Below, in pieces: positions 3,001 through 20,117 of a DNA stretch of 20,117 nucleotides; position 1 is the stretch's first letter, and each line of letters starts with the position of its first letter. The stretch lies in contig JAZGDW010000012.1 in the NCBI GenBank assembly GCA_036478295.1, positions 1-20,117 of the forward strand, in the 5' to 3' direction. Position numbers: made by a program. Origin of the DNA: Candidatus Krumholzibacteriia bacterium (GTDB lineage Bacteria; Krumholzibacteriota; Krumholzibacteriia; WVZY01).

Positions 3001-6000
3001 TTGTAGGGTGCAGTGGGGACGACCCACCCCCGGTGGCAGTGGACACCAAAGCGCCGACGGTGACATCGATGTCGCCCGCGGCTGGGGCCATTAACGTTTC
3101 GTTGAATACGACGATCAGCGCGACCTTCGACGAGCCGGTACAGGCGGCGTCCGTCAATACCACGACCTTCACCGTGAGTGGTGTGACAGGCACGGTCGCG
3201 CTCAACGGAAAGGTGGCGACCTTCACGCCCTCTGCCCCTCTGGCCGAGAGCACGCCCTACACGGTGACGGTAACTAACGGGGTGAAGGACATCGCGGGTA
3301 ACCCGCTGGCCGCAACCGTGTGGTCGTTTTCGACCCTGGGAACCGCGCCCGTGGTAACGTCGGTCTCTCCCCTGAATGGGGCCACGGGTGTTGCGTTGAG
3401 CAGCACCGTCAGTGCAACCTTTTCGGAAGCGGTCGATCCCGCGACGGTGACTGCGACCACGTTTACGGTGGGCGGCGTGACTGGCACTATCAGTGTCACC
3501 GGTGCGACCGCGACCTTCACGCCCTCTGCCCCCTTGGCGGAGAGCACGACCTTCACGGTGACCGCCAGCACCGGCATAACCGATCTTGCCGGCAACGCGC
3601 TGACTGCCGATTTCGTGTGGTCATTTACAACCCTGGGAACCGCACCAACGGTTGCGTCGGTCTCGCCCCTGAATGGGGCCACGGGTGTTGCACTGAACAC
3701 CACCGTCAGTGCAACCTTTTCGGAAGCGGTAGATCCCGCGACGGTGAATGCAACCACGTTTACGGTGGGCGGCGTGACCGGCGCTATTAGTGTCACCGGT
3801 GCGACCGCGACCTTCACGCCCTCTGCCCCCCTGGCCGAGAGCACGAACTTCACGGCGACCGTCACTACCGGCATAACCGATCTTGCCGGCAACGCGCTGG
3901 CTGCCGATTTCGTGTGGTCGTTTATGACCAGCGGGTTGCCGATTGCCAATGCCGGCGCCGACCAGGACGTGACGAAGAACAATGCCGTCTTTCTGGACGG
4001 TTCGGCGAGCGTCGATCCGGATGGCAGCTCGCTCACCTATTCTTGGACCCAGGTCTCGGGACCGACGGCGGTCATCGTCAACGGCAACACGGCCATGCCG
4101 ACGATCCAGCCGATCGACCAGGTCGCCACGCTGGAGTTCGACCTGGTAGTCACGACGGTTACTCCACCAATCGAAACCAGCACGGCGGACCGCGTCGTGA
4201 TCTGGCTGCTCGAGGACGCGAATAACACGCTGTGGGTCAGCACGGCAGGAAACGACGCCAACGCCGGTACGCGCCAGGCCCCGCTCGCGACGGTGCAGGC
4301 CGCCGTCGATGCGGCGAACGCGGGCGCCCAGGGCGCCGACGTCTATGTCACCGACGGGACGTTTGCGGAAACCGTTACGCTGCGCACGAGCGTGAGTATT
4401 TACGGCGGTTTCAACACGGCGAGCTGGCTCCGTGATATCGCGACGAACCAGACCATCATCGTCGGCGGGCCACGAGCGATGTTCGGCTCGGGGGCCAACG
4501 ACCTCACCGTCGACGGCTTGACCGTGCGGAGCGCGGCAGGTGTGACGGCGGGTGAGAGTTCGATAGTAATCGGCTTGAGCGCCAGCACGGGCGTCGTGAT
4601 TTCGAACAACATCCTGACCGCCCAGGACGGTGCCGCCGGTAGCAATGGTTCCAACGGATCGAGTGGCGCCAGCGGCGATTTTGGCAACACCGCGACCACT
4701 TCGACGGGTGCCGGCGGTGGATCTGGCGGCCCGGGCGGAAACGGTGGACGTGGCGGCAACGGCGGTGGAATCTTCGGTGGCGGATCCAACGGGTCCGCTG
4801 GAGCCGGATCCGCTGGAGCCGGTGGCAGCGGTGGGGGCCCCGACTCGAATGGCTCGACCGGGGGCTCTGGGGGCAACGGCACCAACGGATCGAGTGGCGG
4901 CGGTGGCGGCTCCTTCGGCTCTGTCGGCAGCGGCATCTACAACCCTGCCGCTGGGGGCAACGGTACGACCGGAAGCGCCGGTAGCGGTGGTGGCGGCGGC
5001 GGTGGCGGTGGCGGCGAGAGCAATCTCTTCGGAAGTTCCGGCGGTGGTGGCGGTGGCGGCGGCGAGGGCGGTGCCGGCGCTACCCGCGGCACCCGCGGCC
5101 TGGGTGGCGGAGGCTCGTTCGGCATCGTTCTCAGCAACAGTGACGCAACGATTACCGGAAACAACATTACCACTGGCGCCGGTGGCTCTGGCGGAACCGG
5201 GGGCCTCGGCCGTACCGGCGGTAGCGGCGGTAGCGGCGGCAGCGGTGACGTTGTCTCCGGTGCGGGAAACGGTGGACGTGGCGGCAACGGTGGCAGAGGT
5301 GGCCACAGCGGTGCTGGTGGCGGTGCTGGTGGAGGCCCCACGTTCGGGATCGTTGCGAACGCGGGGAGCACACCGACATCATCGAACAACACGTTCACGA
5401 TCGGCGCCCCCGGAACGGGTGGAGCCGGTGGGACGAGTTCGGTTGGCAGCGGAGGAACAGGTGAATCCGGGCAGACCGGAGACGAGCTACAGCTCTAGGT
5501 TGTCCCTTTGTGCGTAACTCACAAGAAGGGCGGCTCTTCGGAGCCGCCCTTTTTGCTACGCTCTTCGATTGCTGGTAGCGGTACCGGCCGGTTGTGCGGT
5601 ATTCACCGGCGCCGTACCGGCGCCGCCCGCGGCTGACGGGTCATGGAATGCCCGGGCTACCGGCATGGTCCAACTCAGGTGGTCTCGTCGATCAGCTCGA
5701 CGAATCGCCCCCACGGGATCGCCGTCCAGGTCTCCGCCTCCAGGGCGCCGGACGACCGCGTGATCATCGACACCTTGGCGGCAACTTCCTCATTCGGCGC
5801 CTCGAAGATGTCCAGGAAATCGTGCGGTCCCAGCAACACATAGTGCGAGATCCACTTCACCTCCGGGCACTTCTTCGCCACCTCTTTCATCCACTTTTTG
5901 CCGATTTTTTCGCGGTGCTTGAGGTCGCTCATTACCTCGGGCGTCAGTTTGGTCAAGAGGATGTAAGTAGCCATCGAAAACCTCCTCGTTCAACTAGAGT

Positions 6001-18000: not shown

Positions 18001-20117
18001 AAAAGCCTCCACGGGCCAGTCGCGGTCGAGTTGTGGGTTATCGCCGATATCGATACGCTCCCGAAGCGTATCTCCGCGTCCCGGGTCGAAGGTAAACGCT
18101 GGGAACACACGCGACTCCAGCGCAGCGGCGCTGTTGAGGTACACGGGCAGGCCCGGATGATGGTCCGGCGTGCCGGTGTAGACGCTGAAAAGCGCCGGTC
18201 CCGAGTAACGGAGCCCTTCGAGAAAACTGTCATGCAACAGCGACACTTGCGACACCGGCGACTGCATTACGTACACATGGCTCATGGCCATCGTCATATT
18301 GGCCAGATGAGTCGGCCAACCCGGCATGACCGACGGTTCCTCAATGTCGCCGCAGACATCCTCGACCTTGGCAAGGATCTTGATCGGCAGACCTTCGGTC
18401 AGTATATCGAGCAGCGTTCGGATACCCGCCGCGCTAAAAAAGTCTCCGTCGAGCACGAGGATTACGGGCGGACACAGTGCCAGCTCATCCTCGGCGAGGT
18501 GTGTCGCGTCGAAACGAGAGAAAAAGGGGTCGTGCAACGCCTCGCGGTAGTGGTTTTCGGTCTCCAGCCGCGCGATGCGGATGGCCCTGAAAAAACGCAC
18601 CATGATCTGCATGCGCTCGTGGTAGGTGCCCACCGCCACGGCGCTGTCGTTGGAGATCGGCGAGAGATCGAACGGCAGTTTCGTGCCCTTCGCCGGGGCT
18701 TCATCGAACAGCGGTTTGACATCGAGAATCGTGGCGAGAATTTCCTGAAGGCGGTTGCGGCGCTTCTCCGGCAACGTGTTGCCAAGCTCGCTCGCGCTCA
18801 AGATGCCGGACAGCACGTTCGCGTCGACATCGTCACCGGCGCCCTCCCCCACCGACGCGCGCAGGTGGTCGGGATTACGGCCCTCCGGAGAACGGTCAAA
18901 ATCCGCCTGCAAGATATCCTGCAGGTGCTGGGTCAGCGACGCGAGTTCCTCACGCCATCCATCACATGCGCCCCTCCAGTGGAACTCGCGAACGGCTTCG
19001 ATGAGTCTTTCGGGTGTTCGCGTCCCGCACGCAATGACGTCGCCGTCCCGGTGAAGCACCCCCCGCGCCGCGGACAGGCTTTGCTGCACCCGTTCTTTTT
19101 CTTCCGGCGAGACGATGGACTCCAGCAACTCTCCGGAAGCGCGCTGCCAGAGTTCCCCAAGCGTCACGCCGTCGCTGTCGTCTGCCAGGGCTCTGATCGT
19201 GGATTCTAACCGGTGGACGTGGCCCTCGACACGTGCACCCTCGTCGCCCTCGCCGCCAATCTCGGCCACCACTTCATCGATGATGCTGGATAGCGAACGG
19301 GCCGCCGCGTCCGGGTCACCGGCGACCAAGCAGGCCGGGTAGCCGTACCGTACGCGCAACAGATCCCGGTGCAGGTACAACAAGGCGGGCATGGGTCCTG
19401 CGGCGGGCGTCGGCGGTAGTGCCTGCGGCCCACGGTGCCCGTAGAGGTGAAACTCCATCAACTCGACAAAGGTGCGCGTGGCGTCGTAGCCACCGGCTCC
19501 CTCATCGTCCCACACGTGCGCTGCTTCAACCGGCAGATCATCCGCCCCGGTCATGCCGGCAGTCGGCGGTGCCTCTCTCCGGTCGGCGTCGCCGGCTTGC
19601 GAGATGTCTTTGCCGAGATCGGACTGGCCGCCGTCAGCGGGTTCGGGATCCTTCACCGTTTCCACCGCTCGCCTCCTCGGATGCTCTGGGAAAGATCCCA
19701 AATCTGTCGAAAGCCTGTTCGAGCACGGCCTGCCTGTCTTCTATGCCGGACACACGCCGTGACCTTCTGATATGTTCGTAGCGCTCGACGTCCTGGTTTC
19801 TGTACAGAATCCCGACCGGTACCCGATCCGTTAATCCGGCGACCTCGCGGGCGCGATTGAGATCGGACGGGTCATGTACTTCCTGCGTCTTGTAAACACG
19901 GGCCGTTGCCTCGCTGATCTGCATGCCGTTTTCGTGTTTTAACACCAAAACGTTGTCTGGATTCGATAGCAGGTTTTCGAAGATACCCGGCATAAAATGC
20001 GGGCATCTCTGCAAAATCCGGATAAAGGAGAATCCCTTGTGATGAAACGCCTGCTTGATGATGTCGTACAACAGTTCAGGCATCCACTCGCATACCTGCG
20101 CGACAAACGACACGTTG

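Follow-up and report, generated by a model that had tools for sequence, protein, structure and literature searches.

Pyruvate:ferredoxin oxidoreductase (PFOR) genes have been found inside rnf operons. The rnf2 locus of the Solemya velum symbiont encodes an intact long PFOR in an rnfB-PFOR-rnfCDGEA operon, and its description remarks solely on the position of the PFOR gene (PMC4287430). The Thiocapsa, Allochromatium, Sedimenticola, and Shewanella atlantica loci are likewise organized as rnfB-PFOR-rnfCDGEA. The PFOR in these operons is a long form (~1,640 aa) in which every motif is intact and a ferredoxin is tethered. Two-subunit 2-oxoglutarate and 2-oxoacid:ferredoxin oxidoreductases (OGOR/OFOR; M. 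marinus 6N2N, S. tokodaii 5B46) have no domain V, and the characterized enzymes use free ferredoxin, as described in PMC5020499. In tubeworm symbionts, Table S1 of PMC6315080 lists an “rTCA cluster 2” consisting of korA, korB, a “por-like” gene, rnfB, “por”, sucC, and sucD, and records transcripts of both PFOR-like genes for the symbionts of E. laminata (log TPM 2.4–2.6). The initial annotation of the locus studied here had held that this paper does not describe the proteins in question; its Table S1 contains both, around rnfB and after korAB.

The window, a 20,117-nucleotide stretch of a contig from a Candidatus Krumholzibacteriia bacterium, shares its Rnf gene order and the position of the PFOR gene with the intact-PFOR operons, and differs from them in that PFOR is represented by two apparently dead copies, g155 and g153, while catalysis would come from KorAB. 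All open reading frames of the operon lie on the minus strand, at the positions first annotated, and the re-derived order is the 3′ part of korB, g155, rnfB, g153, rnfC, D, G, E, A, an 83-aa peptide, and apbE. Throughout the operon, neighboring genes either overlap or are separated by no more than 10 nt. The korB portion (160 codons, 19634..20117; PF12367, TIGR02177) encodes the beta subunit of a two-subunit 2-oxoacid:ferredoxin oxidoreductase. It is followed by g155 (843 aa, 17134..19665; GTG start at 19665 with a GGAGG site), a putative dead PFOR-derived adaptor, by rnfB (283 aa, 16272..17123), a membrane-anchored polyferredoxin above the TIGR01944 cut-off with PRK07118-type matches, and by g153 (1,576 aa, 11540..16270), apparently a dead PFOR that corresponds to the long form over its full length, except that the C-terminal ferredoxin is missing. 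Further downstream are rnfC (10249..11580; TIGR01945, 520 bits), rnfD (9221..10252; TIGR01946, 340 bits), rnfG (8511..9224; PF04205 above cut-off, TIGR01947 91 bits against a cut-off of 102), rnfE (7885..8511; TIGR01948 above cut-off), and rnfA (7307..7888; TIGR01943, 228.8 bits against a cut-off of 229.3). The last gene, apbE (5994..7052; PF02424), encodes a flavin transferase with the N-terminal sequence RRGFLK, presumably a twin-arginine-like (Tat-like) motif. RnfABCDGE and ApbE are all present: RnfB, C, D, and E pass their TIGR cut-offs, RnfA falls 0.5 bit short, and RnfG, 11 bits short, still has rnfG as its best match.

Between rnfA and apbE lies a gene absent from the earlier gene list (7052..7303), encoding the 83-aa peptide with an N-terminal membrane helix and a Cys-rich tail. 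A peptide of this kind follows rnfA in both dead-PFOR and intact-PFOR operons; the copy in the window matches no Pfam family, and a weak FeoB_associated match is found in 3 of 23 members. A scan for promoters and terminators gave counts near chance (4 against 2.9, and 18 against 11.2).

The 5′ part of korB, korA, and a MarR-like gene are carried by a second contig, C196. C196 and the window contig (C24) probably continue a single korB frame, as proposed earlier. Homology supports this join; the two ends show no suffix-prefix overlap, and ~16 korB codons are missing between them. In a genome of the same genus, G216, the operon is contiguous and reads korA-korB-g155-rnfB-g153-rnfCDGEA-peptide-apbE. 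We conclude that this tightly coupled operon is real. A contig from run X1 extends 199 bases beyond the end of the window.

The g153 product aligns with the homodimeric PFOR of M. thermoacetica (6CIN, E 4.8e-37, in agreement with the initial annotation) and with intact long PFORs at 33–36% identity over ~1,500 aa, domains I–II being the best-conserved part of the match. Ligand sites were audited in 80 rows, comprising 64 close orthologs (shorter than 1,450 aa dropped) and 16 distant orthologs (shorter than 1,250 aa dropped), two sets that may overlap; the intact long PFORs used for comparison exclude P0200 and P0229, both of which are without the motifs, and retain the expected residue in 43–44 of 44 sequences at every audited site. 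The YPITP motif reads QAGPD at residues 42–46 of g153 (Tyr in 0/80 rows, Thr in 4/80). Residue E64, which we take to be the catalytic glutamate in PFOR numbering, corresponds to T78 (Glu in 2/80). The TPP/Mg motif GDG...N is lost, with V1252 at the N996 equivalent (Asp in 6/80, the Asn of NTGGQ in 1/80), and none of the four cysteine ligands of the proximal [4Fe-4S] cluster remains: their positions are taken by Y1000, N1003, V1130, and D1328, and Cys occurs at each site in 0/80 rows versus 44/44 intact long PFORs. Domain V retains two [4Fe-4S] motifs, C782–C792 and C922–C932, as in homodimeric PFOR (Cys in 79–80 of 80 rows). The loss of TPP, YPITP, and proximal-cluster ligands claimed at the outset was thereby confirmed site by site, but the substrate-carboxylate arginine is kept: R126 is equivalent to R114, which binds the substrate carboxylate in D. 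africanus PFOR (PMC5020499); close orthologs share it in 51 of 64 cases, distant ones in 5 of 16.

Against TIGR02176, g153 scores 173 bits (cut-off 911), a weak test because an intact long form, L084, also misses the cut-off at 414 bits. An AlphaFold2 model of residues 700–1500 (pLDDT 85, pTM 0.87) has the PFOR fold (Foldseek E 5e-13), and the former NTGGQ loop is disordered in it. By its alignment, g153 has lost the PFOR cofactor sites and kept the motifs of the two domain-V clusters. Its dN/dS is 0.23.

The g155 product matches g153 (E 4e-29, as first reported), and its C-terminal part matches long PFORs at 28–30% identity (E 1e-75). It consists of a domain IV remnant, two helical inserts, a domain VI without cofactor sites, a long helix, a disordered linker, and a putative single-[4Fe-4S] ferredoxin; the segments with GxCxGC and the two domain-V motifs have been deleted. 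The AlphaFold2 model (pLDDT 86) has PFORs as its best Foldseek matches (E 5e-6). The ESM Atlas yielded only “ferredoxin family protein”. Both g153 and g155 share domain order and fold with the homodimeric PFORs (6CIN, D. africanus 1B0P, E. coli YdbK) and differ from them in the absence of TPP motif, proximal cluster, and YPITP and in large helical inserts, g155 additionally in its tethered ferredoxin. The 18 database homologs counted initially are far too few, as 345 matches were found at E≤1e-3. Among the 120 of these that were listed, YPITP, GxCxGC, xTGC, NTGGQ, and CxxCxxCxxxCP occur in 0/120 and one CxxCxxC in 120/120. The tether (residues 717–758, 17392..17517, minus strand) is Pro/Ala/Glu-rich and predicted to be flexible (pLDDT <50), with 58% A+P+E versus 24% in the core and medians of 44–52% in all three groups. 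The terminal ferredoxin domain (17149..17370, minus strand), already recognized in the first description, scores above the PF13370 cut-off and matches D. africanus ferredoxin I; its ligands C772, C775, C778, and C814 are invariant in 67 and 55 rows of two alignments. The dN/dS of g155 is 0.21. Long g155 forms (~1,400 aa) still contain dead domains I–III and represent an intermediate state. The two proteins kept complementary clusters, domain V in g153 and the tethered ferredoxin in g155.

KorA and KorB have the domain layout and catalytic motifs of two-subunit OFORs and, like these, no domain V. KorA carries YPITP (TIGR03710, 504 bits against a cut-off of 483), which is invariant together with the Arg in 55 rows, and the CxxC, Cys, GDG...N (GDGD), and Cys of KorB are invariant in 54 relatives. 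The genome contains gltA, sdhAB, and sucCD; at 90.9% completeness it gave no match to sucA or sucB and no PF16114 match for ATP-citrate lyase (ACL), for which the control search matched nowhere either. We infer that the KorAB substrate is 2-oxoglutarate, because 6N2N is the closest structure (E 1e-85), sucCD are neighbors, and sucAB have no match. An ESMFold2 complex of KorA with g155 reached an ipSAE of 0.69 versus 0.00 for the best control. In the calibration, 116 of 157 solved pairs attained this mark, as did 2 of 215 mismatched ones, but it holds only roughly for a score from our own alignments. At least 87% of contacts recur between model runs, with partner pLDDT ≥80. The predicted KorA-binding element of g155 is a helical hairpin (residues 249–298, 18772..18921, minus strand) within an insert absent from canonical PFORs. 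The predicted interface is no more conserved than the remainder of g155 (0.44 vs 0.48; 0.50 vs 0.48 in the other alignment) or of KorA (0.77 vs 0.77).

The g155 gene is found in 16 of 208 genomes of the phylum, the studied genome included, as originally counted. A separate pattern search gave 586 matches, of which the best 80 were inspected; this is not a g155 count because the patterns also match intact long PFORs (L084, L004), and L084 was dropped from the locus tallies. Where the locus leaves room, korA lies upstream of g155 in 65 of 67 cases. The KorAB clade studied here, unlike characterized two-subunit OFORs, nearly always carries a third gene, g155. Among 57 loci with both flanks, nfnAB is upstream in 35 and rnfB is next in 18; the rest have nfnAB elsewhere in the locus (2) or neither partner (2), and both partners occur in none. 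Loci L067 and L074 have neither an Rnf nor an Nfn partner. NfnAB, recognized by TIGR01316 and PRK06222, replaces Rnf in this sister architecture; five Nfn-type genomes have no g153 ortholog, and only one of the five has rnfC above cut-off. g155 therefore nearly always follows korAB and pairs with Rnf/g153 or with NfnAB, never both in these 57 loci. g153 follows rnfB in 25 of 27 loci, L086 having rnfB without g153. Of at least 836 matches to the intact PFOR pattern, 80 were inspected: rnfB is upstream in 70/70, rnfC downstream in 64/64, rnfCDGEA complete in 52/52, and korA or g155 present in only 1/80. In the tree, g153 forms one side (98/89) and g155 the other (100/99), and Nfn-type g155 is nested within the Rnf type (100/100).

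The five-gene order of tubeworm cluster 2 is identical to that of the operon studied here. The aligned copy is that of Lamellibrachia (L183), which encodes g155 and g153 orthologs; E. laminata and Endoriftia are likened by published annotation. The L183 locus has rnfB and g153 without adjacent rnfCDGEA; it is preceded by a nuoF-like gene and followed by sucCD. The gene annotated “por” in the tubeworm papers is taken there for an active PFOR, but none of the catalytic motifs is present in the L183 copy, and both PFOR-derived proteins appear dead. Our literature search, with Fig. S4 of PMC6315080 and bioRxiv supplements outside its scope, found no description of dead PFOR paralogs or of an nfn-kor-g155 operon, nor of dedicated pseudo-enzyme adaptors for any Rnf or Nfn.

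The original proposal, in which pseudo-enzymes act as scaffolds that couple an oxidoreductase for 2-oxoacids to Rnf, is supported by the family-wide loss of ligands, the retained Fe-S ligands, purifying selection, strict synteny, and the KorA-g155 model, with inactivity and complex formation still inferred. Three refinements are called for. The proteins are not equivalent: g155 belongs with KorAB, also occurring with NfnAB and in the absence of g153 or Rnf, and g153 belongs with rnfB/rnfC. Both derive from an intact long PFOR already inside rnf operons. Finally, both are listed in the literature, where they are interpreted as PFOR.

On balance we favor the view that the operon encodes an ion-pumping 2-oxoglutarate:NAD+ oxidoreductase rewired from an older PFOR-Rnf unit. 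The ancestor, an intact long PFOR with tethered ferredoxin between rnfB and rnfC as extant operons show, was duplicated, as sequence and tree indicate, and the ligands for TPP and the proximal cluster disappeared from both copies. The domain-V clusters and the slot between rnfB and rnfC stayed with g153; g155 retained the tethered ferredoxin and moved behind korAB. Structures have established that two-subunit KorAB enzymes contain no cluster besides the proximal one and leave a pocket open to an external ferredoxin. g155 is predicted to bind KorA through its hairpin, and the ferredoxin on its ~45-residue tether to take electrons from KorB. The arm may pass them to RnfB, directly or through the two clusters of g153, which could hold the Rnf docking site once used by the active PFOR. 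Rnf complexes are known to couple the reduction of NAD+ to the pumping of Na+ or H+. Flow in this organism is probably oxidative; the module would take the place of 2-oxoglutarate dehydrogenase and conserve energy which that enzyme loses. A derived lineage has the KorAB-g155 unit plugged into NfnAB instead of Rnf. More tentatively, and with somewhat greater doubt than belief, we suggest that KorAB, g155, g153, and Rnf form a stable membrane supercomplex acting as the ion-pumping oxidoreductase, in which a swinging-arm ferredoxin replaces the soluble pool, that KorAB-g155 is a plug-in donor module reconnected from Rnf to bifurcating NfnAB, and that the intact long PFOR forms a matching pyruvate-Rnf supercomplex. 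Lipoyl arms in dehydrogenase complexes are an analog of such a swinging arm.

The alternative that survives best, although we consider it unlikely, is that g155 is the private tethered ferredoxin of KorAB and g153 stands off the electron path as a structural, assembly, or oxygen-shielding subunit of Rnf, with electrons passing straight to RnfB or via a soluble pool and no stable supercomplex. RnfB has its own clusters, Nfn-type loci function without g153, and L086 has rnfB without it. However, the eight domain-V cysteines persist in 79–80 of 80 rows while nearly all other catalytic residues are lost, which argues for a redox role, and g153 holds its place after rnfB.

It is less probable still that the same wiring runs mainly in reverse, ion-motive force and NADH driving the tethered ferredoxin and reductive carboxylation of succinyl-CoA (rTCA/roTCA). 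OFORs and Rnf run both ways. The module is present in autotrophic tubeworm symbionts, and PMC6315080 names it “rTCA cluster 2”. Yet the genome has citrate synthase, SDH, and sucCD without a sucAB match, and ACL gave no match under a weak control. In Endoriftia, for which seven OFORs have been counted (PMC13147460), the supplement of PMC11636981 shows korA(3), korB(3), and the adjacent “PFOR-like ferredoxin” falling together (logFC −2.62, −2.57, and −1.91). According to the same paper, these genes go down under sulfide limitation and the main rTCA operon goes up. Note 2 of PMC6315080 also argues that cluster-2 KorAB serves the oxidative cycle too, because the symbionts are without ogdh.

The kept R114 equivalent and the conservation of much of domain I in close orthologs leave room for ligand binding by g153. 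Domain I might sense a 2-oxoacid and gate Rnf, or form a hybrid active site with KorA/KorB, and domains I–II are indeed the best-conserved match to PFOR; with the Arg in only 5/16 distant orthologs, the YPITP Thr in 4/80 rows, and the E64 equivalent in 2/80, we regard this as improbable. That g153 and g155 are pseudogenes decaying after duplication is largely refuted: their rate of evolution is roughly double that of neighboring genes (dN/dS 0.21–0.23 vs 0.08–0.12) and some MAG copies have frameshifts, but these dN/dS values lie far under 1, open frames of 800–1,600 aa with invariant Fe-S cysteines and confident folds occur across many phyla, and Table S1 of PMC6315080 records transcription of both genes.

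The “por” of tubeworm cluster 2, and many database entries labeled “PFOR” or “ferredoxin”, are probably not enzymes, and rTCA reconstructions would be affected as a result. The gene order is already in print as “por-like, rnfB, por” in the tubeworm tables, there taken as an active PFOR. The Nfn form in Photobacterium sagamiensis (L068) and the intact ancestral form in Shewanella atlantica and Thiocapsa roseopersicina (L102, L128) occur in cultured hosts, which makes the hypothesis testable. In many bacteria, g153 and g155 probably form the link between a TCA-cycle enzyme, KorAB, and Rnf, an ion pump of the membrane. If so, a TCA-cycle step would be hard-wired to an ion pump across many phyla (Pseudomonadota, Bacteroidota, Calditrichota, Rhodothermota, and Latescibacterota-like lineages) with pseudo-enzymes as the wiring, and Rnf and Nfn could be supplied with electrons without free ferredoxin.

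The rnf operon is interleaved with two large PFOR-derived iron-sulfur proteins, g155 (843 aa) and g153 (1,576 aa), and the gene order proposed in the initial annotation is borne out, apart from an added gene for an 83-aa peptide. On the minus strand, positions 20117 through 5994 hold the 3′ portion of korB, g155, rnfB, g153, rnfC, D, G, E, A, the peptide gene, and apbE, with neighboring genes overlapping or separated by at most 10 nt. The 5′ portion of korB sits on another contig, C196, together with korA and a MarR-like gene. That the two contigs share one korB is supported by a same-genus genome (G216) carrying the whole series on a single contig, although the contigs do not overlap and approximately 16 korB codons are absent. 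The occurrence of g155 in 16 of 208 phylum genomes was reproduced. Judging by how the nearest homologues are named, the host is probably Latescibacterota/Krumholzibacteria-like. The MarR-like regulator upstream of korA (L185 970–1590, on C196), found too in G216 and in a further genome, G210, carries a C-terminal CxxC...C...C motif and is possibly an Fe-S or redox sensor.

The small peptide (7052–7303, minus strand) belongs to an unannotated family of 60–95-aa peptides found after rnfA here and, among loci L088–L167, L189, L191, and L192, in most of the 59 that were examined. These peptides have a single membrane helix plus a tail rich in Cys, match no Pfam family apart from a weak FeoB_associated hit in 3 of 23 members, and may resemble NqrM in layout. 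The ApbE N-terminus (5994–7052, minus strand) bears RRGFLK, which we take to be a twin-arginine-like signal, suggesting export via Tat rather than the usual lipoprotein route. A GYD-domain protein (5675–5974, minus strand) is encoded 19 nt downstream of apbE on the same strand. Also in the window are an 868-aa secreted or lipoprotein-like protein (2892–5498, plus strand) that combines three Big_5 Ig domains and one PKD domain with a long tail rich in Gly, and a 786-aa Clp-type AAA+ ATPase (21–2381, minus strand) that has two nucleotide-binding domains and, among its best 25 families, no match to Clp_N.

Ligand retention in g153 was audited in a single alignment, referenced to E. coli YdbK, of 80 g153 rows, 64 of them close and 16 distant. 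The numbering of E64 and of the PFOR cysteines is assumed here. That of T31, R114, and N996 follows passages of PMC5020499. Each of the four proximal-cluster cysteines is found in 0 of 80 rows, as is the YPITP Tyr; the NTGGQ Asn, GDG Asp, and catalytic Glu are found in 1, 6, and 2 rows, respectively, while all eight domain-V cysteines are retained (79–80 of 80). Intact “long” PFORs, relatives of ~1,640 aa with a tethered C-terminal ferredoxin, retain each audited site in 43–44 of 44. The claim that g153 lacks the substrate/TPP motif and proximal cysteines stands for the YPITP Tyr, NTGGQ Asn, and proximal Cys, but it overlooked the substrate Arg, which survives in 51/64 close and 5/16 distant rows. 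All 120 g155 homologues listed lack these catalytic motifs and have a single CxxCxxC; deletions have removed GxCxGC and the two domain-V motifs from g155. Retention is complementary: g153 has domain V without a tethered ferredoxin, and g155 a tethered ferredoxin without domain V. Predicted folds are confident (pLDDT 86 for g155, 85 for residues 700–1500 of g153), with PFORs the top structural matches for both; the disordered, Ala/Pro/Glu-rich residues 717–758 of g155 are a predicted tether. Relative to G216, dN/dS is 0.23 for g153 and 0.21 for g155, versus 0.08–0.12 for rnfB, rnfC, rnfD, and korA; selection is relaxed yet purifying.

Both proteins descend from the long PFOR. Among the matches listed for g153, 73 are orthologue-like and, except for P0174, have no TPP-domain annotation; another 47, mostly 1,630–1,700 aa long, carry a TPP domain and in most cases a C-terminal Fer4_13, and represent the intact long PFOR. 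This matches g153 at 33–36% over ~1,500 aa, and its C-terminal part, ferredoxin included, matches g155 at 28–30%. Some g155 relatives of ~1,400 aa retain degenerate domains I–III, so g155 started out full-length. A 72-row domain VI tree, whose root is not fixed, shows three separate sides: g153 rows (98/89), g155 rows (100/99), and the intact long PFORs together with the canonical ones (99/96). The long PFOR has at least 836 genome matches; among the best 80 of these, rnfB lies upstream in 70/70 and rnfC downstream in 64/64 loci with room, and rnfCDGEA is present in 52/52. These loci (L088–L167), nearly all with the long PFOR between rnfB and rnfC where there is room, include cultured Shewanella, Thiocapsa, Allochromatium, and Marichromatium. 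The rnfB–rnfC-flanked protein has apparently never been characterized; passages of PMC4287430 remark on such an intact PFOR within rnf in the Solemya velum symbiont.

Across 85 g155 loci, L084 being left out, korA lies before g155 at the expected spacing in 65 of the 67 that have room, and KorA and KorB of this clade retain all catalytic motifs. Where both flanks are available (n = 57), nfnAB immediately precedes korA in 35 and rnfB immediately follows g155 in 18; two have nfnAB elsewhere in the locus, two have neither, and none has both, although these are not independent events because kin share labels. The nfnA-nfnB-korA-korB-g155 operon (L002, L033, L068, and 32 more) is the commonest g155 context among loci fetched. 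In 25 of 27 loci, rnfB is followed by a g153-like gene; of the two exceptions, one offers no room. In five Nfn-type genomes checked, no g153 orthologue was found, and one has a true rnfC. Nfn-type g155 proteins form one clade (100/100) nested within Rnf-type rows of the domain VI tree, so the Rnf link looks older. Upstream of korA, NuoF-like and TfrA-like flavoproteins in a tubeworm symbiont (L183 16146–18998) and a second RnfC-like gene in two Calditrichota loci (L073 1377–2735; L078) are possible alternative NAD(H) modules.

Structure modeling supports KorA–g155 binding. The model of KorA 248–640 with g155 48–652 scored 0.69 (ipSAE; best control 0.00), a mark attained by 116 of 157 solved complexes versus 2 of 215 mismatched pairs, counts that hold only roughly because the alignments were self-made. 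Runs share at least 87% of contacts, and partner pLDDT is at least 80. The predicted interface pairs g155 249–298 with KorA 394–464 and 508–514; the g155 segment is part of a helical insert missing from canonical PFOR, which makes it less likely that the score merely reproduces the alpha-beta interface known from solved structures. Counting against the model, conservation at the interface does not exceed the average.

Passages of PMC5020499 describe two-subunit OFORs as lacking domain V, leaving the pocket open to external ferredoxin. In the simplest model, g155 would dock onto KorA, its tethered ferredoxin would empty the KorB cluster and then swing to RnfB or to the two g153 clusters, and g153 would hold the Rnf site formerly taken by an active PFOR; 2-oxoglutarate as the KorAB substrate and a stable supercomplex are presumed. 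The genome (90.9% complete) encodes citrate synthase, SDH, and succinyl-CoA synthetase and has no match to sucA, sucB, or, in a weak test, ACL, a combination that favors oxidative flow with ion pumping. Elsewhere in the genome, a 1,580-aa single-chain 2-oxoacid oxidoreductase of unusual delta-beta-gamma-alpha order, with YPITP and GDG (L187 2637–7376, contig C216), is probably its active PFOR. A row of porG-like, GltD/NfnB-like, porA-like, and porB-like genes (L188, contig C77 ~20100–24450), of which the second encodes 563 aa and two ferredoxin motifs, reads as a further OFOR that carries its own NAD(P) module.

PMC6315080 had been thought not to include these proteins, but for the Escarpia symbiont it lists korA, korB, por-like, rnfB, por, sucC, and sucD, all transcribed, with “por” taken as PFOR. 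The Lamellibrachia symbiont has the same order, its two large proteins lack the motifs, and its rnf operon (L094) has a separate intact long PFOR; because of synteny, we infer that the Escarpia and Endoriftia counterparts are also dead. In passages of PMC11636981, adjacent korA(3), korB(3), and “PFOR-like ferredoxin” fall together, and those of a 2026 PFOR review (PMC13768988) mention no dead paralogues and no ferredoxin on a tether. Our literature searches found no account of a KorAB–g155–g153 module, which is present in print only as gene names misread as active PFOR; it is a real, widespread, uncharacterized variant of Rnf and OFOR systems.
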